From: Spirochaetia bacterium | GTDB taxonomy: Bacteria > Spirochaetota > Spirochaetia > SZUA-6 > Bin103 | DNA: 64,000 bases | Direction: 5' to 3' | Assembly: GCA_965198005.1 (NCBI GenBank) | Contig: CBDAOI010000004.1 | Span: 1,568,001-1,632,000 of the forward strand | Shown here: piece after piece, positions 21,680-57,007 of the stretch | Layout: the number at the start of each line of letters is the position of its first letter | Numbering within the stretch: position 1 is the first letter of the stretch | Program-made: the position numbers and the translations under genes | The notes under the pieces: model-generated | Told to the model about the DNA's origin: nothing | Databases searched by the model: none | Seen by the model: only the letters and a program-made list of their open reading frames with translations

Positions 21680-22260
21680 GAGAGTATTGCGTAGCGGATT
21701 GCCGCTCCCTGGCTACTCTGACGCCCGCAACCGCGGGCGCGCCCGGCAACGCGGACGGCCAGTCTGAGTCAATTTGTGAAGCGGGCGGCGTGTGACTCAC
21801 CGGGTTCACCCGGGCTCACGCCGCGCGCGCGTGCGGTTCTTTGAGTATCATCTTCACCTCCTTCTTGGGGCACAGGGTGCCCTGCCAGATGGCTGACGTA
21901 AGATGGGATCCGCGTGCGCGGCCCATCATGCAAACGCCCACCGCTCGGCGGACGTCGGGACCTGCGTCACAACGCCACGCGGGGCGGTGGTCGGCCGAGC
22001 AACGAATGTGTTTGGCCGGCGACGTCGGCGGTCGGTTCTGTGACGGTGAGTTGGGGGGCGGGGATCCAGGACCGTTGCGGTCGTAGCCGGCCGCTACCCC
22101 GGTGCTGAAGGCGACGGCGTGCGCGGGGTCGCGTACGGGGCGATCAGCCGGAGCGGTTAGTTGATTCTCGGTTCGAAAAAGTACGGGGGGGGGGGGGGGG
22201 GGGGGGGGGGGGTATGATGCACCGGTCGCGTCACAGCGAACCGGTCACTGCGCTTACGCC
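21680..22260 (-). repeat. Type-A leader of operon 2, including G28 tract at 22185-22212
   Basis: Near-identical to ~29832-30390 and ~40802-41360. Confidence 0.95.
21816..21851 (-). CDS. Leader uORF MILKEPHARAA
   Basis: AAGGAGGTG Shine-Dalgarno; conserved in four copies with synonymous changes. Confidence 0.6.
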   Translation of the reverse strand: MILKEPHARAA

Positions 22261-22745
22261 ATCCTGGCGCGTCATCGTGACGCTTCATGACCATCCGTCG
22301 AACCCCAAGTGAGGCACGCTAGCATAGGCGCGGCGCGCCGTCAACGACTCGTGGGGGTCACCGGGGTGAGCGAAGGTCACCGCCAACCCGTCACTGGACG
22401 TCGTCATGGCGCTTCATCACCGTTCCGTCGAACCCCAAGCGAGGCAAGCTAGCATAGGCGCGGCGCGCCGTCAACGACTCGTGGGGGTCACCGTGAGCAG
22501 GTCACCGCCACCCGTCACCGCGCTGACTGTCGTCATGGCGCTTCATCACCGATCCGTCGAACCCCACGCGATGCAAGCTTGCTATGGACGCGGCCAGCCT
22601 GTCAACGACTCGGAGGTCACCGAGGTCACCGACCGTGACCGCCAACTGGCCACTGCGCTGGCGGTCGTCGTGGCGCTTCATCCTCATCGACTCTAACCCC
22701 TAACGGTGCAGTCTCTCGCGAGCGCGGCGACCCTGTCAACAGCGC
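22261..22745 (-). promoter_or_regulatory. Four tandem ~130-bp promoter-bearing repeats
   Basis: Minus-strand TTGACG-17-TAGCGT (22344), TTGACG-17-TAGCTT (22474), TTGACA-18-CAAGCT (22605), TTGACA with weak -10 (22739). Confidence 0.7.
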
Positions 22746-23038
22746 CGACCCGTGGGGTGCGCGCGAACGAAATTTGCGTTGCCGACCGGCAACGCGCGGT
22801 GTCACGCCGGACGAGCGGTGACCTTCACACGTGGCTCCATCCGTAGCGCCACGGGTGGCATGCAGCTCCCGGCCCGCGACAGGACGTCGTGGGCTGGGAG
22901 CCCGTTAGCTGTTCCGGAGGCGCGCCCGGAACGCACCCGACCAGGTCGACGAGCGCCGGGCTGGGTATGGGCGTGACCTGGCCGGTCAGCTCGAAGCGGC
23001 GCCTGGGCACCGCAGACCCAGTCGGCGAAGTGTACCGA
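22743..23038 (+). repeat. Boundary repeat R2, upstream of operon 2
   Basis: Matches the other R2 copies. Confidence 0.9.
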
Positions 23039-23121
23039 GAAGGACGCCACGGTACTCGCCCGGGCGACCGACGACCGCACCGAAATCCGCGAGGGCCGCC
23101 TCTCAGCTAGTTGCTTCGAAA

Positions 23122-23239
23122 TCAGGTACGACGCTGCCAGCGACGCGGATCTCGCCTGGCGTGCATGCATGCGACGACGACAATAGTGTCGCCATAGATG
23201 CGGTAGAAGAGCCCGTAAGGAAACCGCTGTGGGATTAGA
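23122..23239 (-). pseudogene. 3' fragment of RelE/ParE toxin, near-identical to 31494-31611, cut by IS1634
   Basis: LIPQRFPYGLFYRIYGDTIVVVACMHARRDPRRWQRRT*. Confidence 0.9.
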
Positions 23240-25216
23240 CCGAAGTTCCAGAGGATGATTGTTAGGTAAGTTGCGTGATAACATATAGTTACGTGCAATT
23301 TCTCAGGTGCCGTGCGTGGCTACATCCGAGGCGTGAATCCCCAGTAGTTCGAAGCAGCGCTGCTGCACGGGCGTCGGCTGCGTCAGTAACTGGAAGGCGC
23401 CGCCACCCTCTGCAACCTGCATTGTGTTCGCTGTCAGCGTGCCTAACACGCTGATCAGCCCACGAAAACTGTGCACCGGCAGATCATCTGCGGTGCGCTT
23501 GCTGGACGCTTTCGCCTGTGCCGCCGGCGACCGCACCGCCGGGCGCACCACCGACGACCGTTGCCGTTCCCCCGCCTCCGGATCGTGGTCATCGAACAGC
23601 ACCGGCGCCAAGGTGCCGCGCATGTGCCACTCCACGTAGTAGGCCAGCATACACAACAGCACGTGCGCCCGTACCCGCTCAGCCCGCCGATGGTAGATCG
23701 GACGCACCTTCAGATCCACCGTCTTCATACTCCGGAACGCGCGCTCCACCTTGGACAGGTCCTTGTACGCCCGCACCGTCTGATCGGCGTCGAACAGCTC
23801 GGGCTCGACGTTGGAGCGCACGATGTACCGCCCATCGAGTTCTTCTTCGGCCGCGATCTTCTCCTGGTCACGCACAAACGTGAATGAGGTCTCGGTGATC
23901 TCGGTGATGAAATGCTTGGCCACCTTGTGCTGGTTGATCACCTTGCCCACCCGGATGCCGATCTCACCGGCGCCGCGCAGCGGATCGTTGGCGCGCTGCG
24001 TGGCAGTCACGATGGAGGCCAGTTTCTCTTCGGTGGCGGCCAACAACTCCAGCCGCTTGCGCCGCCGTTGCTCGGCCAACACCGGGTTGCGGCACACGAC
24101 CAGCCGTTCGCCGGGAAAGTCGGGACTGCTGATCTCCGCCAAGTCACGTTCGTCGAACAACGTCGGCGTCACGCTCCCGGCCGCGATCAGCTTGCGGATG
24201 GTGGGCGCGCGCAAGGTCGTGATCCAGCGCAGCCCGTCGATTCCCTGCAGATCCTCCCGGATGCGCGCGCCAGTGAGCATGCCGCGGTCGCCCACCAGCA
24301 CCACCCGCTGCAACCCGAAGCGCCTGCGAATCTTGTCCACCTGCGCGGCGACCGTCTTCGGGTCGCTGGTCGAGCCCTCGAATACCTCGACCGCCACCGG
24401 ACAGCCGGCTGCCGTGCACAGCAGCCCGAACACGATCTGCAAGGTGCCGCGCTTGCCGTCGCGGCTGTGACCGCGCTGCGCCAACGGACAGGTGTGTCCC
24501 TCGAAATAGCTGGAGGCAAGGTCATACAACATCAGCGTGTTGTCACTCAGGTGGCGCTGTGCCAAGCGGTTCTCGATCCCCTGCTGGCGCCGTACCAGCC
24601 AGTCCATCGCTTGGTACAACTCATTCTCATCGACCGCGCCTAACCCCAGCAGTTGGCCCAGGGTGGACACTGCGGTCTCGGCGGACAGCGCGCTGGCGGT
24701 GGCCAGTTTGGAGCGGGCGTCGATCACGCGGGCGACGATCATGGCGATCACCAGACCGCGCATGCGGCTGGCAGGACGGGCGATGAGGGTGTGCAGACCG
24801 AGCTGCTTGAGGGTGCCGAGGACGGCGGCCACGTGACCATGGGCGTAGCTGCGCACGCAGGTGAAGGCGGCATCGGGATTGACGAGGGGTTCGCCTTTGA
24901 GAGCTCTGCGGATGAGATCGATGACGCGGCTGGGGAGGTGGGAGATGTTACCGAGGGTTTCGTGCTTGACCTTGCCGTCCTGGCGGAAGGTTCTGCGCAG
25001 CAAATGGGTGTGGTAGGTCTTGTTGTTGTGGCGGCGGGTGGTGGTGGCTACATGGACTGCACCGTTTCTGGTTGGCATCGTTGATAGAGTACACACAACA
25101 GCGAAATAAGTCAATGCCATTGGGGGTAAACTCGTGGCTACACATTGCACGGTCACAAAGCCACTAATTACTTGTATGTAAAGTAATTAACCCAGATTTT
25201 CCGTCTGGAACTTCGG
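23240..25216 (-). mobile_element. IS1634-family insertion sequence
   Basis: 13-bp IRs CCGAAGTTCCAGA / TCTGGAACTTCGG; ATTAGA direct repeat at 23234-23239 and 25217-25222. Confidence 0.9.
23303..25078 (-). CDS. IS1634-family DDE transposase
   Basis: YDLASSYFEG, GHSRDGK, VGDRGM, YKDLSKVERAFRSMK, RPIYHR. Confidence 0.95.
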   Translation of the reverse strand: MPTRNGAVHVATTTRRHNNKTYHTHLLRRTFRQDGKVKHETLGNISHLPSRVIDLIRRALKGEPLVNPDAAFTCVRSYAHGHVAAVLGTLKQLGLHTLIARPASRMRGLVIAMIVARVIDARSKLATASALSAETAVSTLGQLLGLGAVDENELYQAMDWLVRRQQGIENRLAQRHLSDNTLMLYDLASSYFEGHTCPLAQRGHSRDGKRGTLQIVFGLLCTAAGCPVAVEVFEGSTSDPKTVAAQVDKIRRRFGLQRVVLVGDRGMLTGARIREDLQGIDGLRWITTLRAPTIRKLIAAGSVTPTLFDERDLAEISSPDFPGERLVVCRNPVLAEQRRRKRLELLAATEEKLASIVTATQRANDPLRGAGEIGIRVGKVINQHKVAKHFITEITETSFTFVRDQEKIAAEEELDGRYIVRSNVEPELFDADQTVRAYKDLSKVERAFRSMKTVDLKVRPIYHRRAERVRAHVLLCMLAYYVEWHMRGTLAPVLFDDHDPEAGERQRSSVVRPAVRSPAAQAKASSKRTADDLPVHSFRGLISVLGTLTANTMQVAEGGGAFQLLTQPTPVQQRCFELLGIHASDVATHGT

Positions 25217-25238
25217 ATTAGACTTAAATGATCAATCA

Positions 25239-25547
25239 TTGATTGCGAACTACTCCACTCTTCATGGTATCCGGGATCTTCGGAACTTGCTGGCTCACGA
25301 AGTATCAGAGACAACCACGTGGCACAGCTTCAACACCGATCTTGGCGTCGTCGAAAATGAACTCCAGCATCTCGGCTTCGTCGGGGATCGTCCAGAATAT
25401 AAATACTTCGGTGAACGCTCTGCGATACGCGGGAGCGATGAGCCCGGCATCGCATTTGTGCAGGATTTTCGATTTGGAATCAAATGCAATGATCGCGTGA
25501 CCATGGAAATCTCGTTCACACGAAAGACACACAATGCTGGAGATTAG
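25239..25547 (+). CDS. Hypothetical protein or fragment in low-GC DNA
   Basis: 102-aa ORF with a HEPN-like RNLLAH motif; probably 5'-truncated by the IS. Confidence 0.4.
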   Translation: MIANYSTLHGIRDLRNLLAHEVSETTTWHSFNTDLGVVENELQHLGFVGDRPEYKYFGERSAIRGSDEPGIAFVQDFRFGIKCNDRVTMEISFTRKTHNAGD

Positions 25548-25808
25548 GTGGGCGTTTATCATTATGCCTTCTATGCGTTCACGAGCCGATAATTTCGCGA
25601 TAATTGACGCGTTTTCGTAATGATCGCTCCAGGATGATACATTGGCAGAGATTTCACAACCTCCGTTATCTTGTGTCGCCGAGAACATCATCAAACGGAG
25701 TCCCGCACTTCCTCTGAGGGGCCAATCGATATAGGTTATTCCTGGAACTGCCTGCCATGTATCTGCCTTCTCGGGATTTTGGGGATCATGTCGGGAATTA
25801 AGAAGATT

Positions 25809-26729
25809 TTACGCTCTTTCCTGCATACGCTCGACGCCACCTCTCAGCCTCGGGTCAAGCAGGTCCCTCACGGCATCGCCGAACATGTTTAGACTCCAAA
25901 CGGTAATCGTCAGGGCAAGACCCGGCCAGAGAGCCAGGTGTGGCGCTATATCCATGAACCTACGTCCTTCCTGGCTGAGCAGACCACCCCAATCAGGAAT
26001 CTCGGGAGGCAGACCGAATCCGAGGAAGCCCAGAGAAGCCAAAGTCAGGATTACGTCTCCTATACGCATGCTGAATGAAATGATTATGATAGGCATCACA
26101 TTGGGTATGACATGTCGCAGAAATGGTCTAAATCTTGAGCTGCCAATCGCCTCCGCCGCCTCAAAATACACATTCTCCTTAATGCCAATGACGGCGCTTC
26201 GGATTACTCTACTGCCGCCGATGCCTCCTGATATGGCCAGAACCAGTATTATCTGTGGCAAACCCCTTCCCACTATGGACATTACGGTTAACAACAGGAG
26301 CAGTCCCGGGAAACTAATCCAGGTATCAACAAATCTCTGCACACCCAGGTCCAGTTTACCACCAAAGAATCCTGAGATGCCGCCTATCAGGGTACTGAGC
26401 ACAACATTAAGTGTGGTCACTGTCAGACCGATAAGTACGGAAATACGAGCCCCATAGATAATGCGGCTCAAGAAGTCTCGCCCCAGCTGGTCAGTACCCA
26501 GGAGATACTTGGCTGATGAACCCTGAAGCCTGTCTACCAGGTGTAATTCATCATACGGATAAGGGGTCAAAACACCGCCAAAGATAGCCACAAAAATCAA
26601 TATCAATAAGATAATCCCGCAGGCAGTACCCAGTGGCTTCTTCTTCCATAGCCTGATAAAGAAATCAGCCAGCCTTTTACGTATCTTTGGTTCGCTTACT
26701 GCTGATGGTGTCCCTGTGCCGTCACTCAT
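25809..26729 (-). CDS. dppC: DppC-type ABC permease, operon 3
   Basis: LLGTDQLGRD, RHVIPN, DLLDPR. Confidence 0.95.
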   Translation of the reverse strand: MSDGTGTPSAVSEPKIRKRLADFFIRLWKKKPLGTACGIILLILIFVAIFGGVLTPYPYDELHLVDRLQGSSAKYLLGTDQLGRDFLSRIIYGARISVLIGLTVTTLNVVLSTLIGGISGFFGGKLDLGVQRFVDTWISFPGLLLLLTVMSIVGRGLPQIILVLAISGGIGGSRVIRSAVIGIKENVYFEAAEAIGSSRFRPFLRHVIPNVMPIIIISFSMRIGDVILTLASLGFLGFGLPPEIPDWGGLLSQEGRRFMDIAPHLALWPGLALTITVWSLNMFGDAVRDLLDPRLRGGVERMQERA

Positions 26730-26747
26730 ATTCCCGATATTCCTCCC

Positions 26748-27776
26748 TTATCTATAACGGACCCTGGGGTCTAAATAGGGATAAATCATGTCGGTAAGTA
26801 GAATGGCCAACATAGTTATGCCGCCGAAAAACAGGTTTACTCCGGAAATCACCGGGTAGTCTCTAAGACTGAGTGCCTCCAGAAAGAAACGACCTAACCC
26901 CGGCAGGTTGAATATGCTCTCTATGATAACTGAGCCACCTACCAGCAGGGGCAAAGACCCACCTACCAGGGTAACTACCGGGATGATTGCATTCTTCATG
27001 GCGTGTCTGATAATGACTACCCTCTCCTTGAGACCCTTGGACCAGGCCGTCCTGATATAGTCCTGCCTGAGCACCTCCAGCATCATGGTGCGCGTCAACC
27101 GCATTGTGCCGGCAGCCATGCCCGTCCCCAGAATCAGGCTGGGAATGATGAACACCCCGAGATTCCCCAGCGGGTCTTCCACGAAAGGAACCCACGTCAT
27201 CGGTGGCGACCATTTCCACCAGATTGCCGGGTATACCATGACCATAAGTGCCAGCCAGAAGTTGGGCGCTGCCATGCCGATGATAGCGACGGTGCGCCCC
27301 GTGTAGTCGGCGGCGGTATCCTGGCGAATCGCCGAGTAGATGCCGACTGGCAGGGCTATCACTAGCCCGATTACGATTGCCATGACGCCAAGCTCAATGG
27401 TTACCGGGAGTTTACGTAATATCCTCTCCTCTATCGAAAGAGATGAAGCCGGCGAGGTTGAGAAGTATTCGCCACGCTCAAACAGTGATTCGCCAAAGGT
27501 GCCCTGGAGGAGACCTTTGAAGTGGGACTCACCGGTAAACCAGTCAGGGGTCGGCAACACTCCTATCCAGCGTCCATACTGCACGTAGACAGGCACGTCT
27601 AATCCCAGCTGATGCTCAAGAGCTTCACGGTCAATATCGTATCCGAACTCCATCCGAGCCGCCATTGCGTCTATTACATCGCCCGGGATGAAGCGGACCG
27701 AGAGAAAGACTATGGTACTCAATATAAACAAGGAGGGGATTATCAGCAATAACCGCCTGATGAGATAGGCTCTCAT
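26748..27776 (-). CDS. dppB: DppB-type ABC permease, operon 3
   Basis: MRAYLIRRLL, QDYIRTAWSKGL, RDYP. Confidence 0.95.
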   Translation of the reverse strand: MRAYLIRRLLLIIPSLFILSTIVFLSVRFIPGDVIDAMAARMEFGYDIDREALEHQLGLDVPVYVQYGRWIGVLPTPDWFTGESHFKGLLQGTFGESLFERGEYFSTSPASSLSIEERILRKLPVTIELGVMAIVIGLVIALPVGIYSAIRQDTAADYTGRTVAIIGMAAPNFWLALMVMVYPAIWWKWSPPMTWVPFVEDPLGNLGVFIIPSLILGTGMAAGTMRLTRTMMLEVLRQDYIRTAWSKGLKERVVIIRHAMKNAIIPVVTLVGGSLPLLVGGSVIIESIFNLPGLGRFFLEALSLRDYPVISGVNLFFGGITMLAILLTDMIYPYLDPRVRYR

Positions 27777-27789
27777 GTCACACTACTCC

Positions 27790-27976
27790 TTGTCATTGCG
27801 AGCCCCCCCCCCCCGTCATTCCCGCGAAAGCGGGAATGCATAGTAATTTCAAATGGTTGCGTTTTCTGGATTCCGGGTCTTCGCCCGGAATGACAGTGAG
27901 AAAGCGCCCCTCTCATTATTTGAGGAGTATCGGGAGCTGGGAAGCGCGCCTGCAGGCGACAGCCTCCCAGCTCCCC
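27790..27976. repeat. REP-like palindromes and post-SBP hairpin
   Basis: gtcattcccgcgaaagcgggaat...ttccgggtcttcgcccggaatgac, a C-run, and gggagctggga...tcccagctccc. Confidence 0.7.
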
Positions 27977-27996
27977 TTTTCCCTGAGCTAAGCCAC

Positions 27997-29807
27997 CTAA
28001 TAACCCATGGCTTCCTTCATCTCGGAATCAATCCAGAGGCGGGCCCATAACTGACCATAACGCTGCCCCCAACCCAGCTGGAATTCACCGTTGTAGCCTA
28101 CGAGCCACGGCTGGTTCACGTTAAACATTGGGACTTTGAAGTACCATACGTAGTAATGGTTCTTAATCATGTACGCATCCGCCTCTTTCAGTCGCCTCTG
28201 CTGGTCCTCCAAGGTGGTAGCGGCTTCGGCGGCTTCAATCAAGCTATCAAGATGCTCGTCCTGTACTCCCGGTATGTTAACCGTTCCTTCCGAGTGACCA
28301 AAAGCGCGCATCATCCACATGGGGTCTCCATGATCGAACCCCAACATCGCCGATGTCATACCTTCGTAGCTATGGTCACGTGAAATAGCTTGCCAATGAC
28401 CAGAGGTGTCGACGGGTACATTTACCTCTACATCAACGCCAATCGCAGCCCAGTAGTCGGCAGCTATTTCTGAAAGGCTTGTGTCCCCTAACGCCACCCC
28501 AAACTGCGTCTGGGTGGTCTTGAATCTAATGCCATCCGCACCGCGCGGGTATCCAGCCTCATCAAGCAGCTTCTCGGCCCCTTCCGGGTCATACCTATAG
28601 CCTTTCTTGACCTCTTCGGGCCACTCATCAAATGGGACGAAATAATCCACAACACCGTCACCTATCACCCCCTGAGGTATCCACTTAGCCCGACCCTTGT
28701 AGTAGGCATTGTTGACTGTCTCGAGGTCCTGAGCCATCTGCATTGCCTTGCGCACCCGGATGTCGTCAAAGGGCGACTGACTTACGTTCATGGCAAAAGA
28801 TGTGTAGTCCGACCGAAATTGGTACGGGAGAAACTTGAGTTCGGGGTTGGTCTTCTGGAGGCCATCTACTTGGTCGAGTCTTGTTTCACTGCCGCCACTG
28901 AAACCCATGTAATCAATCTTACCCGTGCGCATTGCCGAAATACGCGTTGCCTCATCTTCCATCATCAGGAGCCTTATCTCGTCAAAATAAGGCAAGCGGT
29001 TCTCCGGGAACTTCTCGTCATAGCCCCAGTAGTCAGGATTCTTGGTCCAGGTGGCAGAGGTCGCCTCGACAACATCAGTCAGCATAAAGGGACCGGTGCC
29101 GACCAGGTTCCTCCAATCGTTAGCGTCCCCGTGTTCCTCGATTACCTCGGGGGGATATATATAAGGATCATAGTTGTTGAAGATAACCGACAGCACCCCG
29201 AGGTATGGCTTCGTCAGCTTAAAAACAACCGTCCAATCGTCGGTAGCCGTTACCGATTCAATTGGCAGGCTCTCATATTTTTGGACAGGTCCAAATTCAC
29301 TCCACTTGCCCAGACCAAAATAGCGGTGCCAGTTGTATTCCACATCCTTGGCAGTTAGCTCCCGACCGTTCATCGGCTCCTTATCGTGCCAGTGAACGCC
29401 CTTGCGGATGTAGAAGACTATCGTTGTGTCGTCGGGCGTTTCCCAGCTTTCCGCCAGCTGCCCTATCATGACCCAGAGAGGTACAGCCGACTAATGTGGT
29501 CATGTACGTCCCTATCTATTCCCCAGTCCGCGATGGATAGCCTCTCGACGACGCCACCCGCCGCAGCTAGGCCGCCGGTGGGTGTGGGATAACTGTCAGT
29601 GTTTTGACCTGTTTGGTATCGGCTGACCCAGGTGAATGTCCCGCCATACTCTGGCGCGGGCACCTCCTTGCCGGTGGTGGGGTCGGTCACGTACTTCTTG
29701 TCGGCGGCCGCTGCCGGCTCCTCTTCTGAGCCAGCGGCCCACAGGCCGGTTGCGCTCAGAATCAGGACCAACGTAATCGCGAAGGTCCTTGCAAAAAATA
29801 TCTTCAT
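27997..29807 (-). pseudogene. Family-5 SBP of operon 3, split by a frameshift near 29470
   Basis: N-terminal ORF (signal peptide, APEYGG) stops at 29466; the rest (GQLAESWE onward) is in another frame. Confidence 0.85.
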
Positions 29808-29831
29808 CGTTTCTTCCTTGAATGTTATTTC

Positions 29832-30390
29832 GAGAGTATTGCGGAGCGACTTGCGCTCCCTGGCTACTCTCATGCCCGCAACAGCGGGCGCGCCCGCCAA
29901 TGCAGACGGCCAGTTTGAGTCAAATGGCTGAAGCGCGCGGCGTGTGACTCACCGGGTTCGCCCGGGCTCACGCCGCGCGCGCGTGCGGTTCTTTCAGTAT
30001 CATCTTCACCTCCTTCTTGGGGCACAGGGTGCCCTGCCAGATGGCTGACGTAAGATGGGATCCGCGTGCGCGCCCCATCATGCAAACGCCCACCGCTCGG
30101 CGGACGTCGGGACCTGCGTCACAACGCCACGCGGGGCGGTGGTCGGCCGAGCAACGAATGTGTTTGGCCGGCGACGTGGGCGGTCGGTTCTGTGACGGTG
30201 AGTTGGGGGGCGGGGATCCAGGACCGTTGCGGTCGTAGCCGGCCGCTACCCCGGTGCTGAAGGCGACGGCGTGCGCGGGGGCACGTAGGGGGCGATCAGC
30301 CGGAGCGGTTAGTTGATTCTCGGTTTGAAAAAGTGGGGGGGGGGTATGATGCACCGGTCGCGTCACAGCGAACCGGTCACTGCGCTTACG
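29832..30390 (-). repeat. Type-A leader of operon 3, including G10 tract at 30335-30344
   Basis: Near-identical to the leaders at 21.7 and 40.8 kb. Confidence 0.95.
29968..30003 (-). CDS. Leader uORF MILKEPHARAA
   Basis: AAGGAGGTG Shine-Dalgarno; conserved. Confidence 0.6.
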   Translation of the reverse strand: MILKEPHARAA

Positions 30391-30772
30391 CCATCCTGGC
30401 GCGTCATCGTGACGCTTCATGACCATCCGTCGAACCCCAGGCGAGGCACGCTAGCATAGGCGCGGCGCGCCGTCAACGACTCGTGGGGGTCACCGAAGGT
30501 CACCGCCAACCCGTCACCGCGCTGTCGCCATCCTGGCGCCTCATGCCATCCTGGCACGTCATCATGGCAGTTCATCACCGATCCGTCGAACCCCACGCGA
30601 CGCAAGCTTGCTATGGACGCGGCCAGCCTGTCAACGACTCGGAGGTCACCGAGGTCACCGACCGTGACCGCCAACTGGCCACTGCGCTGGCGGTCGTCGT
30701 GGCGCTTCATCCTCATCGACTCTAACCCGGAACGGTGCACTCTCTCGCGAGCGCGGCCACCCTGTCAACAGC
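30391..30772 (-). promoter_or_regulatory. Three tandem promoter-bearing repeats
   Basis: Minus-strand TTGAC(G/A) starting at 30476, 30634 and 30768. Confidence 0.7.
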
Positions 30773-31265
30773 GCCGACCCGTGGGTGCGGGCGAACGAAG
30801 TTCGCGCCGCCGACAGGGAACTCCCGCGGTATCACGCCGGATGAGCGGTGTGACCTCCACCCGTGGCTCCATCCCTGGCGCCACGGGTGGCATGCAGCCT
30901 CCAGACCGCGACAGGACGTCGGGGGCTGGGAGCGGTTGTTGCTCTTTTCCGGAGGCGCGCCCGGAACGTGCCCGACCAGGTCAACGAGCGCCGGGCTGGG
31001 CATGGGCGTGAGCTGGCCGGTCAGCTCGAAGCGGCGCCTCGCATCGTAGTGTCTGCGCATCATAGGGCACCGCAGACCCAGTCGGCGAAGTGCACAGGTA
31101 ACTCATCACACGACTGACGCGTCGTCCGTTCGTGGGCCCCGTCCATGGGGCCCAGCACAGGCGTTCCCGCGCCATGGAGGGCGCGGGCGATTGCGCGCGT
31201 CCGGAGTCACCACCCATCACGCTCACCAGCGACGGGTCATGGAACCCGCTGACCGAGCCGGTCAG
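30772..31265 (+). repeat. Boundary repeat R2 with extension, upstream of operon 3
   Basis: Matches the other R2 copies; inverted match to 16150-16625. Confidence 0.9.
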
Positions 31266-31493
31266 TCTGAAAGCAGCGACTGGCATCGCAGGGTCTTTGC
31301 ATCATCGTGGCGAAGGTCGGAGGCCACCACCCGGCAGTAGCCGGCGGCTGGGAGGCCACGCCACACGAGCCGTGAACCCGCTCCCCACCGACCGTCGGCA
31401 GGCCGCTCTTTGAATTCATCGCGACCTGCAACCTGGCAACCTGCTGGCGGGAGACGGCAGGCTCAACGGCGTGATCGACTAGTTGCTTCGAAA

Positions 31494-38954: not shown

Positions 38955-40778
38955 CTAATAACCCATTGCTTCCTTCAGCTCCTGGTCGATCCAGAGGCGG
39001 GCGGCGATGACATACTCAAATTGGGTTTGTCCTATTTGCCATTCTCTGTTAAGACCTTTGACCCACGGCTGGGTCGCGCCTATCGATGGTAGTTCCTCAC
39101 CCCATACGGACCAGTACCTCTCTATTGCGTACATATTCAGCTCTCTCACCAACGGCAATTGCTCTTCTTCTGTGCTTACCAATCGGCCGGCTTCGTACAT
39201 GGCGTCATAAGCCGGATCGCTCACATTGGGGCGGTTAAAGGAAGAACCAGTCACGTAAGTACTCATCGTTCCGAAAGGCGCTTTCCTAGTGCCCAATACC
39301 GTAGCAATCATGTCATGATCTCTATTTGCAGCGCGAGGACCTAGCTCCGCACCTGTCACTGGCTCAATCTCTAGATCAACGCCAATGTCACGATAGTATG
39401 TAGCGGCTATTAATTCTGCATAGCTCACATCGGCGGCGTCATGCCAGGTCAATGTGGCCTTGAACCTGATGCCGTCGGCCCCGCGCGGATACCCCGCCTC
39501 ATCAAGGAGCTTCTCGGCCCCTGCCGGGTCATACATATAGCCTTTCTTGACCTCTTCGGGCCACTCTTCAAATGGGATGCCAGCCACTGGGACATCGTTG
39601 CCTACCGTTCCCTGAGGTATCCAGTTTCCCCACCCTTTGAAGTAGGTATCGTGAATTGTCTCAAAGTCCAGTGCCATGTTCATTGCCTTGCGCACCCGGA
39701 TGTCATCAAAGGGTGGCCTCTCCGTGTTCATGCTAAAACTATTAAGCGACCGTACCCAATGCTCGGTTATGACGATTTCGGGGTTGGTCCGCTGCAGGCT
39801 CTCCACTTTGTCGATACTGCCGAACATCCTATAGGCATGCAAGCCGGTGTAATCGATCTTACCCGTGCGCAGCGCCGCCAGCTGCGTTGCGTGTTCTGGT
39901 ATAATCAGGCCCCTTAACTCGTCAATATAGGGCAGTCGGTTCCCCGGGTATTTTTCGTCGTCGCTCCAGTAGTTACGATTCTTGGTATAGGTTACAGAGC
40001 TGCCGTCGACATACTCAGTCAGCATAAAGGGCCCAGTGCCGACCACGTTCCTCCAATCCTTCATGTCTCCGTATTCCTCGATTACCTCCCGTGGAACAAT
40101 GATGTGAACTACAGGGTCGATGATAGACCGCAGCGCACGGGGGTCTGGCTGCTTCAGCTTAAAAACAACCGTCCATTTGTCCGTTGCTGTTATCGATTCG
40201 ATCGGTATAGCATCCCACCCATCATACCCGAGGCCGGGGGTAGGTTCGGCTTCGGAGAATTCGCCCATAGCAAGATTGCGTTGAAAGGTATATTCTACAT
40301 CATAGGCAGTCATCTCCCGACCGTTCACCGGTGGCTTGTCATGCCAGTGAACGCCCTTGCGGATGTGGAAGGTATAGGTGAGGCCGTCCTCGGAAATATC
40401 CCAGCTTTCCGCCAGCGCACCTCTTAAGGTAGATAGAGGAGTGGAAAAACCTGAGAAGTCAAATATGTCCCTATCTATTCCCCAGTCGCCGATGCTTAGC
40501 TTCTCTAGAACACCTTGGCTCATTATGTAGAGGACACAGCCGTGGGAATAATACGGGTCAGCAGTCGGACAAAGCCCCTTTTCACTCCTGCCAATGGTTA
40601 ATGTCCCGCCATACTCCGGCGCGGTCACCATCTTGCCGGTGGTGGGGTCGAGCACCATTTCCTTCTCGGCAGCGGCTGCCGGCGCCTCTTCCTCTGCGCC
40701 GGCGGCCCAGAGGCCGGTTGCGGTCATTACGAGGACCAACGCAACCGCGAAGGTCATTCTAATTCTTACAATGTCCAT
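38955..40778 (-). CDS. Family-5 ABC substrate-binding protein, operon 4
   Basis: Signal peptide, APEYGGTLT, LAESWD, GTGPF, PPFDDIRVR. Confidence 0.95.
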   Translation of the reverse strand: MDIVRIRMTFAVALVLVMTATGLWAAGAEEEAPAAAAEKEMVLDPTTGKMVTAPEYGGTLTIGRSEKGLCPTADPYYSHGCVLYIMSQGVLEKLSIGDWGIDRDIFDFSGFSTPLSTLRGALAESWDISEDGLTYTFHIRKGVHWHDKPPVNGREMTAYDVEYTFQRNLAMGEFSEAEPTPGLGYDGWDAIPIESITATDKWTVVFKLKQPDPRALRSIIDPVVHIIVPREVIEEYGDMKDWRNVVGTGPFMLTEYVDGSSVTYTKNRNYWSDDEKYPGNRLPYIDELRGLIIPEHATQLAALRTGKIDYTGLHAYRMFGSIDKVESLQRTNPEIVITEHWVRSLNSFSMNTERPPFDDIRVRKAMNMALDFETIHDTYFKGWGNWIPQGTVGNDVPVAGIPFEEWPEEVKKGYMYDPAGAEKLLDEAGYPRGADGIRFKATLTWHDAADVSYAELIAATYYRDIGVDLEIEPVTGAELGPRAANRDHDMIATVLGTRKAPFGTMSTYVTGSSFNRPNVSDPAYDAMYEAGRLVSTEEEQLPLVRELNMYAIERYWSVWGEELPSIGATQPWVKGLNREWQIGQTQFEYVIAARLWIDQELKEAMGY

Positions 40779-40801: not shown

Positions 40802-41360
40802 CGAGAGTATTGCGGAGCGACTTGCGCTCCCTGGCTACTCTCATGCCCGCAACAGCGGGCGCGCCCGCCAACGCGGACGGCCAGTTTGAGTCAAATGGCT
40901 GAAGCGCGCGGCGTGTGACTCACCGGGTTCACCCGGGCTCACGCCGCGCGCGCGTGCGGTTCTTTCAGTATCATCTTCACCTCCTTCTTGGGGCACAGGG
41001 TGCCCTGCGAGATGGCTGACGTAAGATGGGATCCGCGTGCGCGCCCCATCATGCAAACGCCCACCGCTCGGCGGACGTCGGGACCTGCGTCACAACGCCA
41101 CGCGGGGCGGTGGTCGGCCGAGCAACGAATGTGTTTGGCCGGCGACGTGGGCGGTCGGTTCTGTGACGGTGAGTTGGGGGGCGGGGATCCAGGACCGGTG
41201 CAGTCGTAGCCGGCCGCTACCCCGGTGCTGAAGGCGACGGCGTGCGCGGGGGCACGTAGGGGGCGATCAGCCGGAGCGGTTAGTTGTTTCTCGGTTTGAA
41301 AAAGTGGGGGGGGGGTATGATGCACCGGTCGCGTCACAGCGAACCGGTCACTGCGCTGCC
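40802..41360 (-). repeat. Type-A leader of operon 4, including G10 tract at 41306-41315
   Basis: Near-identical to the leaders at 21.7 and 29.8 kb. Confidence 0.95.
40939..40974 (-). CDS. Leader uORF MILKEPHARAA
   Basis: AAGGAGGTG Shine-Dalgarno; conserved. Confidence 0.6.
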   Translation of the reverse strand: MILKEPHARAA

Positions 41361-41970
41361 TGTCATCGTGACCCTTCATGACCATCCGTCGAACCCCAAG
41401 CGAGGCACGCTAGCATAGGCGCGGCGCGCCGTCAACGACTCGTGGGGGTCACCGAAGGTCACCGCCAACCCGTCACCGCGCTGTCGCCATCCTGGCGCCT
41501 CATGCCATCCTGGCACGTCATCATGGCAGTTCATCACCGATCCGTCGAACCCCAGACGAGGCAAGCTTGCTATGGACGCGACCACCCTGTCAACGACTCG
41601 CACGTCACCGAACATCACCGGCCACCGGTCACTGCGCTGACTGTCGTCATGGCGCGTCATCATCGATCCGTCGAACCCCACCCCAAGCGAGGCAAGCTTG
41701 CTATGGAGGCGACCACCCTGTCAACGACTCGCAGGTGACCGACCGTGACCGCCAGCCGGTTACTGCGCTGACTGTCATCATGGCAGTTCATCACCGTTCC
41801 GTCGAACCCCAGGCGAGGCCAGCTTGCTACGGACGCGGCCACCCTGTCAACGACTCGGACGTCACCGAACATCACCGGCCACCGCGCTGGCGGTCGTCGG
41901 GGCGCATCATCTGCATTCGCCGAACCCCTAACGGTGCACTCTCTTGCGAGCGCGGCCACCCTGTCAACAG
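41361..41970 (-). promoter_or_regulatory. Five tandem promoter-bearing repeats
   Basis: Minus-strand TTGAC(G/A) starting at 41435, 41593, 41724, 41850 and 41967. Confidence 0.7.
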
Positions 41971-49845: not shown

Positions 49846-49926
49846 CCAGACCGACGGGGGATCGGGAACTCCGGGTGGTAACCGCCCATGGCGCCTTCGT
49901 GAACCCGGGACATCGCCGCGCTTTGA

Positions 49927-50717: not shown

Positions 50718-51347
50718 CGCCGCCACGTTGGGCAGCACGTGGCGCACCAGCGCTCCCATCCGGGTGCTGCCGGTGGCCGTGGCCGCCTGCAGGTAGTCGT
50801 TCTCCTTGACCGCGATTACCGCGCCTCGGACCAGCCGCGAGGCCACCACGCCGCCCGTGACGCCCAGCACCAGGATGAGCTGCAGCAGGCCCTGTCCGAC
50901 CAGCGACATGATCGTCAGCAACAGGAGCAGACCCGGAAACGCCATCCAGGCGTCGACAAACCGCTGCACCACCAGGTCCAGCTTGGCGCCGAAGAATCCG
51001 GCGGTGCCGCCGATCAGCACCGCAACCAGGACGTTGAGGCTGGTCGCGACCACGCCCACGAGCATGGAAACCCGAGCCCCGTGGATATTGCGGCTCAAGA
51101 AGTCGCGCCCCAACTGATCGGTACCCATCAGATGCTCGGCCGACGGCGGTTTCAGCAGCGCTCTCAGGTGCACTTCATCGAACGGATAGGGGGCCAGCAC
51201 GTCGGCGAAGATCGCCACCAGAATCAAGCCCAACACGACCACGCCGCCAGCGGTGCCGAGCGGCTTCTCGCGCCACAGCCGGAGCAGAAAGTGAACCAGC
51301 CCCGCTGATGGTGTCCTTGCGGCGTCCCCCATGCGCTCGGTCCCCAT
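50718..51347 (-). pseudogene. dppC: GC-rich DppC permease, 3'-truncated
   Basis: EKPLGTAGG...MGTDQLGRD...RHVLPNVAAP, then unrelated sequence. Confidence 0.9.
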
Positions 51348-51364
51348 ACCTGGCTAGGTGTAGC

Positions 51365-51885
51365 GCGGGTGACGACCGGAATGAGGGCGTTCTTGACGGC
51401 GTGCCGGATGACCACGACCCGCTCCCGCAGTCCTTTCGACCAGGCGGTTCTGATGTAGTCCTGGCGCAGCACCTCCAGCATCATGGTGCGCGTCATGCGC
51501 ATGGTGGCTGCCGACAGCGCCGTCCCCAGGATCAGGCCGGGAATGATGAACATGCCCAGGTGTCCCAGCGGGTCGTCGGAGAACGGAATGAGCTGCATCC
51601 GTGGCGTCCAACCCCACCAGATCACCGGATAGGTCATGAGTCGCCGAGGGTGCCGCGCAGGATAATGCCCTCCAACCAGCGGCCATACTGCACGTGGACC
51701 GGCACGTCCAACCCCAGCTCGTGCAGCAGCGCCTCGCGGTCCAGGCCGAACAGGGCATTGTCAGTCGCCACCATCTGGTCTATTACGTCGCCCGGGATGA
51801 AGCGGGCCGAGAGGAAAACCAGAATGCTCAATATGAAGAGCGTAGGGATGACGAGCAGCAGCCGCCGGATGACGTAGGCTCGCAT
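51365..51885 (-). pseudogene. dppB: GC-rich DppB permease with internal and 3' deletions
   Basis: MRAYVIRRLL...GTLGDS / MTYPVIWWGW...KNALIPVVT. Confidence 0.9.
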
Positions 51886-51996
51886 AGGCAGTTGAAGGCG
51901 CAGCGATTCCGTCGCAATGAGCGGGAGAGCCGAGCGGCGACGCTCACCTGCGAAGCCTCTCCGCTCTCCCTGCGGCAACCTGCGAGGGAAAAGCCC

Positions 51997-52668
51997 CTAC
52001 TGACCCATTTCTTTCATCAGATCGTGGTCGAACCAGAGGCGGGAGAACACGAGAATACGGTCATCGCCGCCCAAGGTTGCTTCACCGTTATAGCCTATGA
52101 CCCACGGCTGCACTGCGTTGAAGTTTGGAACCACGGGACCCCATATAGTGATGTGGTTCCGTATGTAGTACATATCTGCCGCTTTGACCGCCCTCTGCTG
52201 CTCCTCGACACTGGTAGCGTCTCGGACGGCTTCAAACAGCCGGTCATATTCCGGATCGTTGTAGTGTGGGGGGTTCCATGTTGCCCCCGAGAAATAGTAG
52301 CCAATCGGCTCGACCGGGGCAAGATACTGGACCGCAGCAGCCCAGGAGACCATGTCTCCGTATTGCGCTTCACGAACCATGCCCCCGTAAGCACCCGCCG
52401 GCGGAATGGACACATCCACGTCAACGCCAATTTCCATCCAGTAGCCGGCCACGAGTTCGAAGTAGTCAATGGCAAACTCGAAAGCGGTCATGGTGGCCTT
52501 CAATCGAATGCCGTCCGCGCCGCGCGGATATCCCGCCTCATCCAGGAGCTTCTCAGCTCCTTCCGGGTCATACGTATAGGCCTTCTTGACCTCTTCGGGC
52601 CACTCTCGGAATGGAGTATTGTACCCTACGAGGGCCTCCCCTATCAAACCCTGAGGCTGCCACTTGGA
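51997..52668 (-). pseudogene. C-terminal third of a family-5 SBP
   Basis: KWQPQG...YDPEGAEKLLDEAGYPRGADG...SRLWFDHDLMKEMGQ. Confidence 0.9.
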
Positions 52669-52670
52669 CA

Positions 52671-53177
52671 ATCCCCGTGTCGCTTGATAGCACCTACCAG
52701 TTGAACACGGGTGGCAACACGGATTTCCTCAATATGAAGGCCTTAGACCGCCTGAAGTCCAAGAAAGTCTCCAAGACGGAGTCCGTGCAGTCGCAATTGG
52801 ACGAACGGCTGGATTCTCGGAACATTCATATTGGACCGTCCGACTACGTGCCGTGGCAGGGCGACAACAAGGTTGCCTTCATCCGGATGGAAGGTCGCGG
52901 CTTCGGGGACGTGCCGTTGGAACTCGAACTCAGGCTGTCGGTCCAGGATTCCCCCAACAGCGCCGGCGTGGTCATCGATGCCATCCGTTGCGCCAGACTG
53001 GGGTTGGAGCGCGGCATCGGCGGACCATTGGAGGCGCCTTCCGCCTACTATATGAAAAGCCCTCCGAAACAGATGCGTGATTCGGTGGGCCATGATTTGA
53101 CCGAGGCATTTATTCAAGGTAGTGATGCCGGCGGCACTTCCAGTACGGAGGATGTTCGAACAACCGCCGGTGAATAG
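52671..53177 (+). pseudogene. ino1: myo-inositol-3-phosphate synthase, 5'-truncated
   Basis: [42 protein letters not shown]. Confidence 0.9.
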
Positions 53178-54044
53178 CCCCGACAGTCAGGCTGCCGATA
53201 ATGGTCCTGGCGGTGCGAACGCTGCGCGGACCGCCGCCTCGCCCTGGACGGAGCGGTTACTTATGCTCCACCGCCAAGTGCGGAGTGCGGTCGCGAACGC
53301 CGACCGCGCTGGAACCGGATCCAGGAACGCGAAGGGCGACGATGTCAAACGCTTCGACCTGGTTGCCGACGACGCGGCTTTAGCTGTCCTCCGGGAACTC
53401 CAGTTGCCGGTCGTCATTGTTTCCGAGGAGGCGAGCCTCTTGAAATCGGTTCCGGCACGCCGCGACCTCGTCTCGTCCTCGATCCAGTGGATGGGTCCGA
53501 CAACTGGGCGCAGGGGTTGCCGCTGTCAGCCTTGTCCTGCGCCGTGCTGCCGGCTGACGCCCCCCTCCACCCCGATTGGGTCGAAGCGGCTCTGGTTGGG
53601 CCGCTCGAGCCGGGCACGCCCCTGATCGCCGTTAAGGGCTCTGGTGCTTGGCGCGGGAAGCAACGCCTCCATACTTTCGGCGTCCGCAACGTCGCCGAGG
53701 CCACGATCTCGGTCGAACTCAATCATCATTCTCCGTCGCCGGGCCTTGCCCGCCTGATGACCGCTGCCAGAGGCGTGCGGTGTTACGGCTGCGCGTCACG
53801 CGCCATCTCCCTGGTCGCCGAGGGCGCGACAGACGCCCATGTGGACGCGCGTGGCCGTCTGACCGCGGAAAGCTACCTCGCCGCCGCTCGGTTGGTGATC
53901 GAGGCGGGGGGCTGGGTTGTCGGCCTCAACGGCGCGCCCTTGGCGGCGCCGGAAAGCTTGACCGACCGCGTCAGCCTGGTCGCCGCGTCGAGCCGGACGC
54001 TGTGCGATGAAATCGTGGAAGTTTTGGGCGATGAACAACACTGA
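53170..54044 (+). pseudogene. Inositol monophosphatase family, frameshifted near 53450
   Basis: NAKGDDVKRFDLVAD...IVSEE in one frame; LDPVDGSDN...AARLVIEAGG in another. Confidence 0.8.
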
Positions 54045-55083
54045 CTTGACTACGGCGGCACCGGATATGGCGCTGATCCTGGCTGCCGGATTGGGGTCGC
54101 GGCTTCGACCGCAAACCAAGACACCGAAACCCCTGGCCAGGGTGCTTGGATTGACTCTCGCGGAACGGGTCGTGTGCACAATGTTGGCCGCCGGCATCCG
54201 CCGGTTTCTTGTCATCCTTGGTCATGAGGCCGAAACGGTCAGAGCCCATTTTTCCGATATCGCCCAACGTCGCGGCGTCACGATTGACTTCATCGAAGGC
54301 GAGGCCTGGGAGCGCGGCAATGGCGCCAGTGCCCTGGCGGCCAAGGGTCGCACCGGCGAGGCGCCCTTCTTCCTGGTCATGATCGATCATCTTTTTGATC
54401 CCCGGATCGCGCGTGCACTGGACGACGACCCTCCCGCACCAGGAGAAATGTGCCTCGCGGTGGACCGCGATAAGGATGGCATCTTCGATCTCGACGATGT
54501 CACTCGGGTCAAGATCGACGACGGACGCATTCAAGAGATCGAGAAGACGCTCGATGATTGGGATGCCGGCGACACCGGAGTCATGCTTTGTACGTCCGGC
54601 CTGTTCGAAGGGCTTGAGCGCGCGGCGGCGCGGAACGAGCATGGACTCTCCGACGGGCTCAGGGAACTGGCGCGTGAAGGCCGCGCGAGCACCGTCGATG
54701 TGACGGGAATGCCGTGGCTCGACGTGGATACACCCGAAGCCTTGCGTGAGGCCCAGCGAAGGCTCATGCGCGACCAAGCCGGTAAAACCTGGGACGGACC
54801 GGTGGCGCGCCATTTCAACCGACGGGTTTCCCGCTGGCTCAGCCGCTACCTGGTTGGCACAGCCGTGACGCCCAACCAAATTTCCCTAGCCTCCTGGTTG
54901 CTGTCGTGTATCGCGGCGGGATTGATGGCATTGGGCGGCTATCCGGCCCTGGCCGCCGGTGGCGTGCTCGCACAGCTGGCCTCGGTCGTCGACGGGTGCG
55001 ATGGCGAGATCGCTCGTCTGAAGCACTCGCAGAGCGAGTTTGGCGGCTGGTTCGACGCGGTCCTCGACCGGTATGCCGACGCC
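54031..55083 (+). pseudogene. Bifunctional inositol-phosphate cytidylyltransferase / CDP-alcohol phosphotransferase (IPCT/DIPPS-like), 3'-truncated
   Basis: ILAAGLGSRL..PKPL, WLDVDT, TPNQIS, DGCDGEIAR...GGWFDAVLDRYAD, then unrelated sequence. Confidence 0.85.
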
Positions 55084-55486
55084 CCGCCTGCGTTCCTTAG
55101 CAATGCAGGAGCTACGCTCCTGCGTGACACGGGCGCACGTTGGGCGCGGCCCCCTAAAAAGCGGCCATTCGTCAGGAGATCGGTGGTGGGTTGGCGCCTG
55201 CCAGGATCGCCTCCATCCGCAAGCGGACGCGGCTCAGGGTCGGCTCAGGATGGGTGAGCAGGGTAGAACCGTTCCTCACGGCTGCCATCGACCGCGAGAC
55301 TGGCCACCGCCCCGGGGGAGATACCCTCGACCTGCTGCCGGTCGTAGCGGTGGTGATCCGCGTAACCGCGTATTTACTCGCGGCGTAGGTGGGCGCGCCG
55401 TGGGCAGAAGACGTCCCCGCTACAGTGTGGACAGTGTGGCGACCCGGCTTGACCACTCTGCCCCAGTCTAGTACCAAGGAGTCAAT

Positions 55487-56767
55487 ATGCCAAGAATTAC
55501 AGGACCATCAGAGGGCCCCGTTGCCGTAACTGGCGCTGCCGGCTACATCGGCTCGCACGTCGTGCTCAAGCTCGTCCAGGCCGGCTATGATGTGCGTGCC
55601 TGCGTGCGCAACGCCCTCGACCACGAGAAGGTCGCGCACCTCAATCAGATGAACCACATCGAGGGCTGCGACGGCTCGGTCACCCTCTACGAGGCCGACA
55701 TGACCGTGCAGGGCGCGTACGACGAGCCCTTCAGCGACGCTACCTGCGTCTTCCACGTCGCCGCCGAGATGGGCAACCTGCCGGACTCCACGCCGATGAA
55801 GGTGTACGAAGGGGGCCGCCTGGCCATCGTGCCCGTGATGAACAGCGTCAAGCAGAGCGGCAGCGTGAGGAGGTTCATCTTCACGAGCTCGTTCGCGGCC
55901 GTTGGTCATCGTGGCAGCACACGGCCGTTCACCGAGGACTCATGGGCGTACTTCACCTCGAGCGACGACCACACCCCGCACGAGAACTGGACCATGGATG
56001 TGGTGCGCGTGAACCGGGACGTCGCGTATTCGATGACGAAGGTCGACACGGAGAAGTACTGCTACGAGGAAGGTGAGAAGTCCGGCGGTCAGTTCGATTG
56101 TTTTGGGATCATGCCGTGGACCGTCGTCGGGCCGGTGCTCTGCGCCAGGCACAACATTCAGTTCGGGTGGCAGTCGATGGTCGGCGACCTCATGAACGGC
56201 TTCAGCCACAGAGACATGAACTACAATATCATCGATGTGCGTGACGTGGCGGAGGCGCAGCTCCGCATCGCCGAGAGCGACGCGGTCAGCAATGGCGACC
56301 GCTACAACCTCGTGTGCCATGGCGATGACGGTTTCATCACACTGGCGGAGGTCAAGCAGGTCCTGCAGGCGCATTTTCCGGGGAAGGGCATCGGCACTGG
56401 ACTCCAGCAAAAGAAGAGTGGCGAGTGGGTGGAGTCCACGAACACCGGTGGCACGCCACCCGCAGTCCTCGAGAAGTGCATCACTCAGCTCGGGATGACT
56501 CCCATCCCGCCGGCGCAGTCACTCATCGACAATGCGGAGAGCCTCGTCTCGATGGGCTTGGTCAACCTGCGTGAGGGCGAGGACAATTTCCAAAAGGACA
56601 TCATCTCACCACCCGGCGGCAAGGGGAAGACTTCGGGCGGCCTGGGCATCGAGTCCACCTGGCTTGGTGAGGGATATCCGGCGGGTCTCAACGCGCCGGA
56701 GTTTGAGGAGGGGGCCGGCGAGAGGGAACTCAGCGCAGCGGCGAAGCAGATGGGCGCGAAGCTGTAA
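55487..56767 (+). CDS. NAD-dependent epimerase/dehydratase (extended SDR, DFR-like)
   Basis: VTGAAGYIG, FHVAA, FTSS, YSMTK, IDVRDVA; AAGGAG Shine-Dalgarno. Confidence 0.9.
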   Translation: MPRITGPSEGPVAVTGAAGYIGSHVVLKLVQAGYDVRACVRNALDHEKVAHLNQMNHIEGCDGSVTLYEADMTVQGAYDEPFSDATCVFHVAAEMGNLPDSTPMKVYEGGRLAIVPVMNSVKQSGSVRRFIFTSSFAAVGHRGSTRPFTEDSWAYFTSSDDHTPHENWTMDVVRVNRDVAYSMTKVDTEKYCYEEGEKSGGQFDCFGIMPWTVVGPVLCARHNIQFGWQSMVGDLMNGFSHRDMNYNIIDVRDVAEAQLRIAESDAVSNGDRYNLVCHGDDGFITLAEVKQVLQAHFPGKGIGTGLQQKKSGEWVESTNTGGTPPAVLEKCITQLGMTPIPPAQSLIDNAESLVSMGLVNLREGEDNFQKDIISPPGGKGKTSGGLGIESTWLGEGYPAGLNAPEFEEGAGERELSAAAKQMGAKL

Positions 56768-56876
56768 CAGAAACGTGCCCAGGCCCACGCGAGCAGTGGC
56801 CGGTTGGCGGTGACGCGCGCAAGCTCAACGCATTGCAGGGCCGGGCGTGGCAAGGTGCACGAGGCCAAAATCGCTA

Positions 56877-56905
56877 TTGACGTTTCTTGCGCCGCGCCCT
56901 ATACT
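56877..56905 (+). promoter_or_regulatory. sigma70-like promoter of operon 5
   Basis: TTGACG-17-TATACT followed by the repeat-unit sequence gacggatgccgatgaagcgccatga. Confidence 0.8.
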
Positions 56906-56995
56906 ACCGGTTCACGACTCGACGGATGCCGATGAAGCGCCATGATGACATTCAGAGTAGTGGCCGGTTGGCGGTGACGCAGCAACCGGTTTACT

Positions 56996-57007
56996 CCCCC
57001 CCCCCCC
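56996..57007 (+). repeat. C12 tract at the position homologous to the type-A leader tracts
   Basis: Directly follows the promoter repeat unit. Confidence 0.85.

Follow-up and report, generated by a model that had tools for sequence, protein, structure and literature searches.

The window analyzed here is a 64-kb stretch of a Spirochaetia genome in which Opp/Dpp-type transporter cassettes stand in series with transposase genes between them, each cassette encoding one family 5 solute-binding protein (SBP) and two permeases. The leaders upstream of these cassettes carry long runs of G or C, and it is the role of these tracts that is considered here. Judged from sequence, the tract is probably a frameshift switch, driven by slippage within a leader open reading frame (ORF), if either of two possible outputs is allowed for, and a readout through Rho is the version that we favor, with somewhat better than even confidence. 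Replication slippage would change the length of a poly-C run inside an upstream reading frame of the sense-strand leader. At one length in three, ribosomes would read the whole leader and the transporter genes would probably stay expressed; at the other two lengths, ribosomes would meet an early stop, approximately 200 nt of C-rich RNA would be exposed, and Rho would probably terminate transcription. The sequences before the tract (heads) and after it (bodies) would be interchangeable, since each head supplies one frame and each body one open frame, and the tract would be the likely crossover point for their reshuffling.

Placement of the tracts and frame architecture of the leaders

An earlier note on this DNA had singled out four tracts, G28 at 22185-22212, G10 at 30335-30344, G10 at 41306-41315, and C12 at 56996-57007, and these coordinates are exact; the cassettes concerned are referred to below as the 22k, 30k, 41k, and 57k cassettes. 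All four tracts are poly-C on the sense strand of their own cassette, where the order is one to four sigma70-like promoters, then the C-run, then a leader of 350-700 nt. The homologous position assigned to them holds upstream, where the same promoter-array unit directly precedes each tract, but not downstream, as the body of the 57k copy is unrelated. The four copies are genuine, but the tract is not limited to them, and they represent four of approximately 90.

The genome (4.89 Mb, 66% GC) contains 194 SBP match loci, of which 145 are long. Runs of at least 9 nt number 121 for G/C vs. 6 for A/T, and 88 of these 121 have C on the sense strand and lie no more than 1.8 kb upstream of an SBP match, a placement found for none of the 121 in the opposite orientation; approximately four would be expected per strand by chance. 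When runs of 7 or more are admitted, 95 SBP loci are preceded by a total of 113 tracts, whose lengths span 7 to 28. Some leaders have two serial tracts (G000, e.g., C2:457969-458312 and C4:339777-339861), separated by a module of 50 or 300 nt whose end is a second head; these are possible nested switches.

Where the tract lies and on which strand, how the frames around it are arranged, and which state each copy is now in can be read directly from the DNA. The frames were compared at 82 loci, each represented by one tract, the one closest to the SBP, with an SBP match of at least 1300 nt and the tract at least 150 nt from that match. At 68 of the 82 loci, the sequence after the tract has stops within 60 nt in two frames and a third frame that is open for at least 150 nt. 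Dinucleotide shuffles gave this pattern at a mean of 8.5 loci (maximum 15) and piecewise, local-composition shuffles at 16.5 (maximum 23), and it is present at 41/277 other genomic C-runs and at 16/82 on the antisense side. When each body cluster is represented by a single locus, the pattern is retained in 19/29. A further 13 long loci lack a C-run of at least 7 and hold instead a repeat of 4, 7, or 8 nt, around which the frames follow the same pattern. All told, the units found in this slot of the leader ORFs are 1, 2, 4, 7, and 8 nt long.

The heads are correspondingly organized. An ATG located 40-140 nt before the tract and open to it occurs in 74/82 heads, in a single frame in 72, vs. a mean of 31.8 and a maximum of 42 for shuffled heads. 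Several heads look alike by eye, with Met, Met, and an acidic pair. When a locus is called ON if the frame of the head ATG matches the open frame of the body, and OFF if it does not, 36 loci are ON, 25 are OFF, and 21 are uncallable (P 3e-5 against one third), and about 19/33 unique head-body combinations are ON (P 0.004). An excess of ON over one third is expected if the ATG is a real start and read-through is the favored state. By counts alone, an SBP of at least 520 aa stands behind 32/36 ON, 18/25 OFF, and 18/21 uncalled leaders.

Tract length, which replication slippage likely alters, also differs where the surroundings do not. Paralogues with equal flanks (20 bases upstream and 12 downstream) carry C7/9/10/18, C16/28, or C7/10/10. 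The head-body pair of the 57k copy is unique in the genome, and a spanning contig was present in one of four public runs; in this run (X1), a 140-nt contig (depth 17.9) across the tract reads C13 vs. C12 and is otherwise identical, which is no more than suggestive of a length change. No tract junctions were found when contigs of JGI metagenomes were scanned twice by pattern.

Related genomes display the same design, sometimes with other fillers. The comparison covers 41 SBP leader rows, taken from loci titled Spirochaetia or of the same genus; five were chosen because they held a C12 run. Of the 41 rows, 28 have a repeat and 13 do not, and the frame pattern is found at one or more repeats in all 28. 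Fillers other than poly-C are 8-mers in up to 13 copies, or 7-mers. With L033 left out, the remaining 27 of the 28 rows comprise 13 ON, 8 OFF, and 6 uncallable. At one locus in G001, the 57k body lies behind two 7-mer copies in place of C12. In the genome of the window, no unit among the 13 multi-nucleotide repeats is a multiple of 3, a property of 62% of the units in a background of 1.5 Mb; this comparison is weakened by the selection of these repeats on the frame pattern and by the two duplicate pairs and one related 7/8-mer family among them. Separately, L001, L025, L031, and L038, from two 50%-GC genomes titled 'bacterium', carry arrays of a C-rich 7-mer (8-13 copies) ahead of related SBP genes, lacking the strict two-stop pattern; these are possibly a parallel switch.

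Probable output of the proposed switch and competing explanations

Rho is the probable output because intrinsic terminators are lacking and the composition is C-rich. An intrinsic-terminator-like site is found in 1/82 leaders. The C-over-G skew is +0.15 to +0.22 over the 200 nt after the tract; before the tract it ranges from -0.16 to +0.06, and past +200 it is about 0. C-rich untranslated RNA is described as a Rho target (PMC12360218; PMC13650167). The alternative of a C-rich Rho-loading site, listed in the earlier note, is part of the reading preferred here. Rho is encoded in a 583-aa frame, L095 (G000:C3:1094517-1095761), against a model of 415 positions, and likely carries a large extra domain.

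The same frameshift switch could instead have a translational output, ribosomes at the end of the long frame refolding the 3' RNA module or re-initiating at the SBP start with no involvement of Rho. This is the most serious competitor, if an improbable one. Where the long frame ends bears upon it: at 60 of the 82 loci the end lies 61-210 nt before the SBP start and at 3 it lies 4-60 nt before, while the stop overlaps the SBP ATG in 6 and the frame continues into that of the SBP in 8 (other arrangements, 5), and the groups of 6 and 8 would suit a translational output. The local structure around long-frame stops is also stronger than that of randomly chosen windows in the bodies (-26.5 vs. -20.3 kcal/mol), and the stop lies within a hairpin of a conserved module that has GAGTC/GACTC complementarity. 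Against such an output, the Shine-Dalgarno (SD) sequences of the SBP gene and of a mini-ORF in the leader are predicted to be mostly unpaired, none of 20 consensus pairs of the 3' module is compensated among 44 distinct sequences, and the C-over-G skew behind the early stops would be unneeded.

A graded dial, in which a longer poly-C gives stronger Rho loading or a longer EF-P-dependent polyproline stall with no switching of frame, is unlikely. CCC encodes proline in every frame, as in the run of 10 prolines in the 22k leader peptide, EF-P and Rho are both encoded, and polyproline stalls promote Rho termination in Escherichia coli (PMC5021804). Such a dial would leave unexplained the paired early stops in unrelated bodies and the excess of in-frame heads, and the 7- and 8-mer slots encode no polyproline. 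A graded length effect may nevertheless modulate the frame switch.

The tract also coincides with the sharpest break in leader homology. Concordance, that is, how often both sides of a split point have a homologue in the same other leader, is 0.38-0.54 at -200 to -160, 0.64-0.75 at -140 to -40, 0.08-0.13 across the tract, and 0.21-0.36 downstream. The 82 loci comprise 48 head-body combinations, in which 161 pairs share both parts vs. 96 expected. Among 75 long SBPs, a shared body predicts the signal peptide (score 74-78 vs. 43-47) and a shared head does not; identity of the mature SBPs (0.47-0.49) is predicted by neither. The closest relative of the 57k SBP in G005, at 91% DNA identity, has a different head and body, and mixed (AC)n and short add-ons are present at some tract junctions, a raggedness for which a reverse transcriptase or an end-joining polymerase adding bases without a template is a conceivable source. 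These patterns suggest that the tract is likely an exchange point between heads and bodies, either as a hotspot or as the sole tolerated cut. They could also be cited for a mere recombination joint or repair scar, formed through microhomology or a G-quadruplex during swaps of promoter heads, with the frame pattern as inherited baggage. That view has little probability, as the frame pattern appears in 19/29 body clusters that share little sequence and in sister genomes, repeats unable to form a G-quadruplex occupy the same slot, and heads and bodies are not fully independent, as the excess of shared pairs indicates.

The earlier note had proposed that the G-run serves as spacer in a convergent antisense promoter, active at G12-G14, which could silence a single cassette. 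On the plus strand, TTGAAA-AAGT-G10-TATGAT is indeed present in both G10 copies, with a spacer of 14 nt, and promoters containing poly-G are known from porA of Neisseria (PMC3639595) and tprL of Treponema (PMC7864442). Over the whole set, the antisense -35/-10 pair is found at 6/113 tracts, with spacers of 11, 14, 14, 14, 14, and 22 nt, none of them within 16-18 nt. It is missing at the other 107, including the 22k copy (TCGAAA, with a gap of 34 nt) and the 57k copy, which has no antisense hexamer pair. Head/body permutation gave 2.5 +/- 1.4 pairs vs. the 6 observed (P about 0.03), but five of the six tracts form one near-identical head-body lineage that includes both G10 copies, and shared descent accounts for the small excess equally well. 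TATGAT is the reverse complement of bases inside His-His-Thr codons of the leader ORF head, tract lengths are not clustered at one optimal spacer, and a scan for consensus promoters over 29700-31400 found none on either strand. In 69/113 cases, a match to a sense promoter occurs 49-257 nt before the tract, and hence the tract is part of a transcribed leader, unlike that of porA. The antisense promoter has therefore been dropped as a general function and is given very little credence, the idea of a slippery tract acting as a per-cassette switch being retained while its antisense mechanism is unsupported; an incidental antisense promoter may arise at G13, limited to the G10 head-body lineage. 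In SBP paralogues of a Dehalococcoidia-titled genome, a G-run of 7-9 begins where a sense -35 (TTGACG) ends and reaches into the spacer that precedes a TATAA-type -10, at 6/9 loci checked (L005, L008, L020, L021, L024, and L040, in each case upstream of position 3001). This layout matches the porA-like one proposed in the earlier note, but on the sense strand and in another phylum.

Homopolymer lengths are error-prone, and C-runs at contig starts in G006 and G008 (three and one viewed, respectively) look artefactual, one of them beside adapter-like sequence, yet the strict placement and orientation of the tracts, the same slot in several other genomes, and the 13-C run in an independent run make a sequencing or assembly artefact the least credible explanation of all, and only the exact lengths, not the tracts themselves, are in doubt. 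Counts of C12 over 31 genomes include overlapping matches and are given no weight as evidence here.

Several observations weigh against a frameshift switch read out through Rho. At the thresholds used, 50/145 long SBP loci have no slot repeat, and the frame pattern fails in 14/82; one relative, L033, has a unit of 6 nt. Conservation of frame by body length is modest (19/29 loci, 11/21 distinct lengths), and in the head family with the most members the SD is weak (score 2). ON/OFF counts are 18/6 for tracts up to 11 and 18/19 above, and the state of long tracts, C28 among them, is uncertain. At 30k, an ON leader stands in front of a broken SBP. C13 at the 57k tract is one contig in one of the four runs, where a consensus error in either assembly is possible, and the genome encodes MutS and MutL. 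With regard to output, the case for Rho is drawn from composition and terminator lack, and the mini-ORF has a strong SD of its own, predicted to be unpaired, and may be translated regardless of the switch.

The cassettes of the window

The 22k cassette is encoded on the minus strand. Three tandem sigma70-like promoters at 22316..22605 (TTGACN-17/18-TAGCGT/TAGCTT/CAAGCT), identified by consensus match only, precede the C28 tract (22185..22212), with the last -10 ending 103 nt before it. The tract is predicted to be in the short-peptide (OFF) state: as assembled, the leader ORF (22157..22294) encodes 45 aa and stops at a TAA 25 nt after the tract, whereas C29 would give 159 aa; an SD-like GGGGT lies 7 nt before its ATG at 22294. 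Farther downstream are the SD AGGAGG and mini-ORF MILKEPHARAA (21816..21862), whose stop is common to the long frame and falls inside a predicted GC hairpin, and the conserved structured 3' module (21656..21815), which has hairpins and GAGTC/GACTC complementarity and almost no covariation. The SBP_bac_5 gene (19841..21655, 604 aa) follows, and then permease B (17727-18683) and permease C (16797-17717). A leucine-rich-repeat gene (18729-19721) sits between the SBP and permease B.

The 30k and 41k cassettes are likewise on the minus strand, and their C10 tracts (30335..30344 and 41306..41315) are both in the read-through (ON) state. In the 30k cassette, two sense promoters at 30448..30634 (consensus match) are followed by a leader ORF of 152 aa (29968..30426) that is in frame with the mini-ORF and shares its stop; the 152-aa product had no exact-sequence match in a protein collection, which says little. 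The SBP gene (27997..29807) is split by a frameshift after 113 codons. Between this gene and its permease lies a plus-strand C12 run (within 27803-27850; sense G) that is not in the leader slot and that adjoins an ATTCCC-N8-GGGAAT palindrome with four genome copies. The 41k cassette has four tandem sense promoters at 41407..41850 (consensus match), a leader ORF of 148 aa (40939..41385) that ends at the mini-ORF stop, and an SBP_bac_5 gene of 607 aa (38955..40778).

The 57k cassette is on the plus strand, with one sense promoter, TTGACG-17-TATACT, at 56877..56905 (consensus match). Its C12 tract (56996..57007) is in the short-peptide (OFF) state, the leader ORF as assembled (56926..57012) encoding 28 aa, and C11 or C14 would give read-through of 170-171 aa in a long frame ending at 57439. 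In this copy, the SD and mini-ORF MILKEPHARAA (57521..57568) are out of frame with the long frame. The SBP_bac_5 gene (57704..59527, 607 aa) and permeases (59616-61571) follow. Within the leader body, 57374-57520 resembles an antisense group II intron remnant (Rfam D1-D4-6, E 1e-4, below gathering score); Rfam searches gave no match at gathering score in the window and only weak matches in two leaders. The apparent 5' end of this remnant adjoins the mini-ORF SD.

A fifth cassette, missed in the earlier note, is on the plus strand and has a leader ORF region at 8844..9203. Two 7-mer copies occupy the slot (8866-8879), and the leader ORF stops at 8913; one frame continues open as far as 9203, the mini-ORF stop, and the SBP starts at 9385. 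The segment 47495-52671 is a decayed cassette: it retains a fragment of an SBP and pieces of permeases, and its permease C frame continues into a HigB-like toxin-antitoxin domain.

Promoter-like units of approximately 125 nt occur in one to seven copies in one head family (e.g., 22316-22605 and 41407-41850), and each has its own ATG-led head fragment; the copy number of this unit may be a second tuning device. Elsewhere in the genome, likely recent duplications of whole cassettes are represented by G000:C1:5043/C4:1733552 and C2:5777/C3:799222, with SBP match length and upstream features equal within pairs.

Host context and comparison with known switches

The 90% cluster of the 57k SBP has members named Spirochaetaceae, the best relatives include Spirochaetia genomes, and several public runs that contain the window stretch carry the label sponge metagenome. 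Portions of the leader also occur in public RNA runs, in a form that does not resolve strand, level, or transcript ends. Matches to the tail of OppD/F-type ATPases number 8 in the genome, or approximately four ATPase pairs. It is conceivable, though we hold it with somewhat less than even confidence, that the tracts constitute a genome-wide combinatorial switchboard in a sponge symbiont with a genome of free-living size, in which about 95/145 SBP cassettes carry a one-in-three frameshift switch read by Rho, served by about four ATPase pairs, with the tract as a standard joint for heads, bodies, and binding proteins and each cell expressing a random subset of transporters. If this is so, most of the approximately 145 SBP genes would be silent in any given cell, which would explain how 8 OppD/F-type ATPase matches suffice, and an uncultured sponge symbiont would be hedging its bets on which substrates it takes up, or on its phage receptors. 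Such bet-hedging is directly testable, because tract length modulo 3 gives the state of a locus from its DNA, and RNA coverage can be set against it.

A literature search, incomplete for subscription papers, found no description of a leader-frameshift system on SBP cassettes, and the part of PMC3711429 that was available holds nothing on leader-ORF switches. Variable G/C homopolymers upstream of genes for surface or envelope proteins are known from porA of Neisseria (PMC3639595) and from tprL of Treponema pallidum (PMC7864442), the latter itself a spirochaete. Those tracts lie within the promoter, between -35 and -10 in the case of porA, whereas the tracts described here lie 49-257 nt downstream of a sense -10 (69/113); a position between antisense hexamers is limited to 6/113, and lengths do not gather around a 16-18 nt spacer. 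In E. coli fim and Clostridioides difficile flgB, a stochastic change of leader DNA toggles premature termination (PMC12360218), as is proposed here; the change in those systems is a recombinase inversion at one locus, and in the spirochaete it would be slippage within a leader ORF.

The proposed output resembles that of the uORF-dependent Rho attenuators tnaC, speFL, cruR, and mgtL, in which translation of an upstream ORF (uORF) shields or exposes C-rich RNA (PMC12360218). The genome encodes Rho and has C-over-G RNA behind the uORF stop, as expected of this type. In the tnaC-type attenuators, the ribosome is stalled in response to a metabolite, whereas in the spirochaete a heritable change of length would set the frame.

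The closest likeness is to the pil1 and pil3 leaders of Streptococcus gallolyticus: there, the frame of a leader peptide is shifted by GCAGA repeats, and the long peptide opens a terminator (PMC3894217). In both systems, a non-triplet simple repeat lies inside a leader peptide with a start (74/82 here, with a weak SD in the largest family) and frame sets a short or long product (68/82), and thus where the ribosome stops relative to a hairpin; the long peptide means expression in pil1/pil3. An intrinsic terminator (hairpin and T-run) upstream of the gene, present in pil1/pil3, is found in 1/82 leaders, and the spirochaete system is therefore classed as a variant of the pil1 type and not as a member of it. 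The two differ further in that pil1/pil3 use GCAGA pentamers at two loci with two of three frames ON (PMC3894217), whereas the spirochaete uses mostly poly-C at about 95 loci with one of three frames long, has interchangeable heads and bodies, and would control nutrient transporters in a symbiont. In the literature that was found, the workings of leader-peptide phase variation are established for a single pathogen, at two pilus loci; the spirochaete would apply the same logic at near a hundred loci, in a non-pathogen, to nutrient transporters, and with no intrinsic terminator, and would thereby offer a compact and portable stochastic switch.

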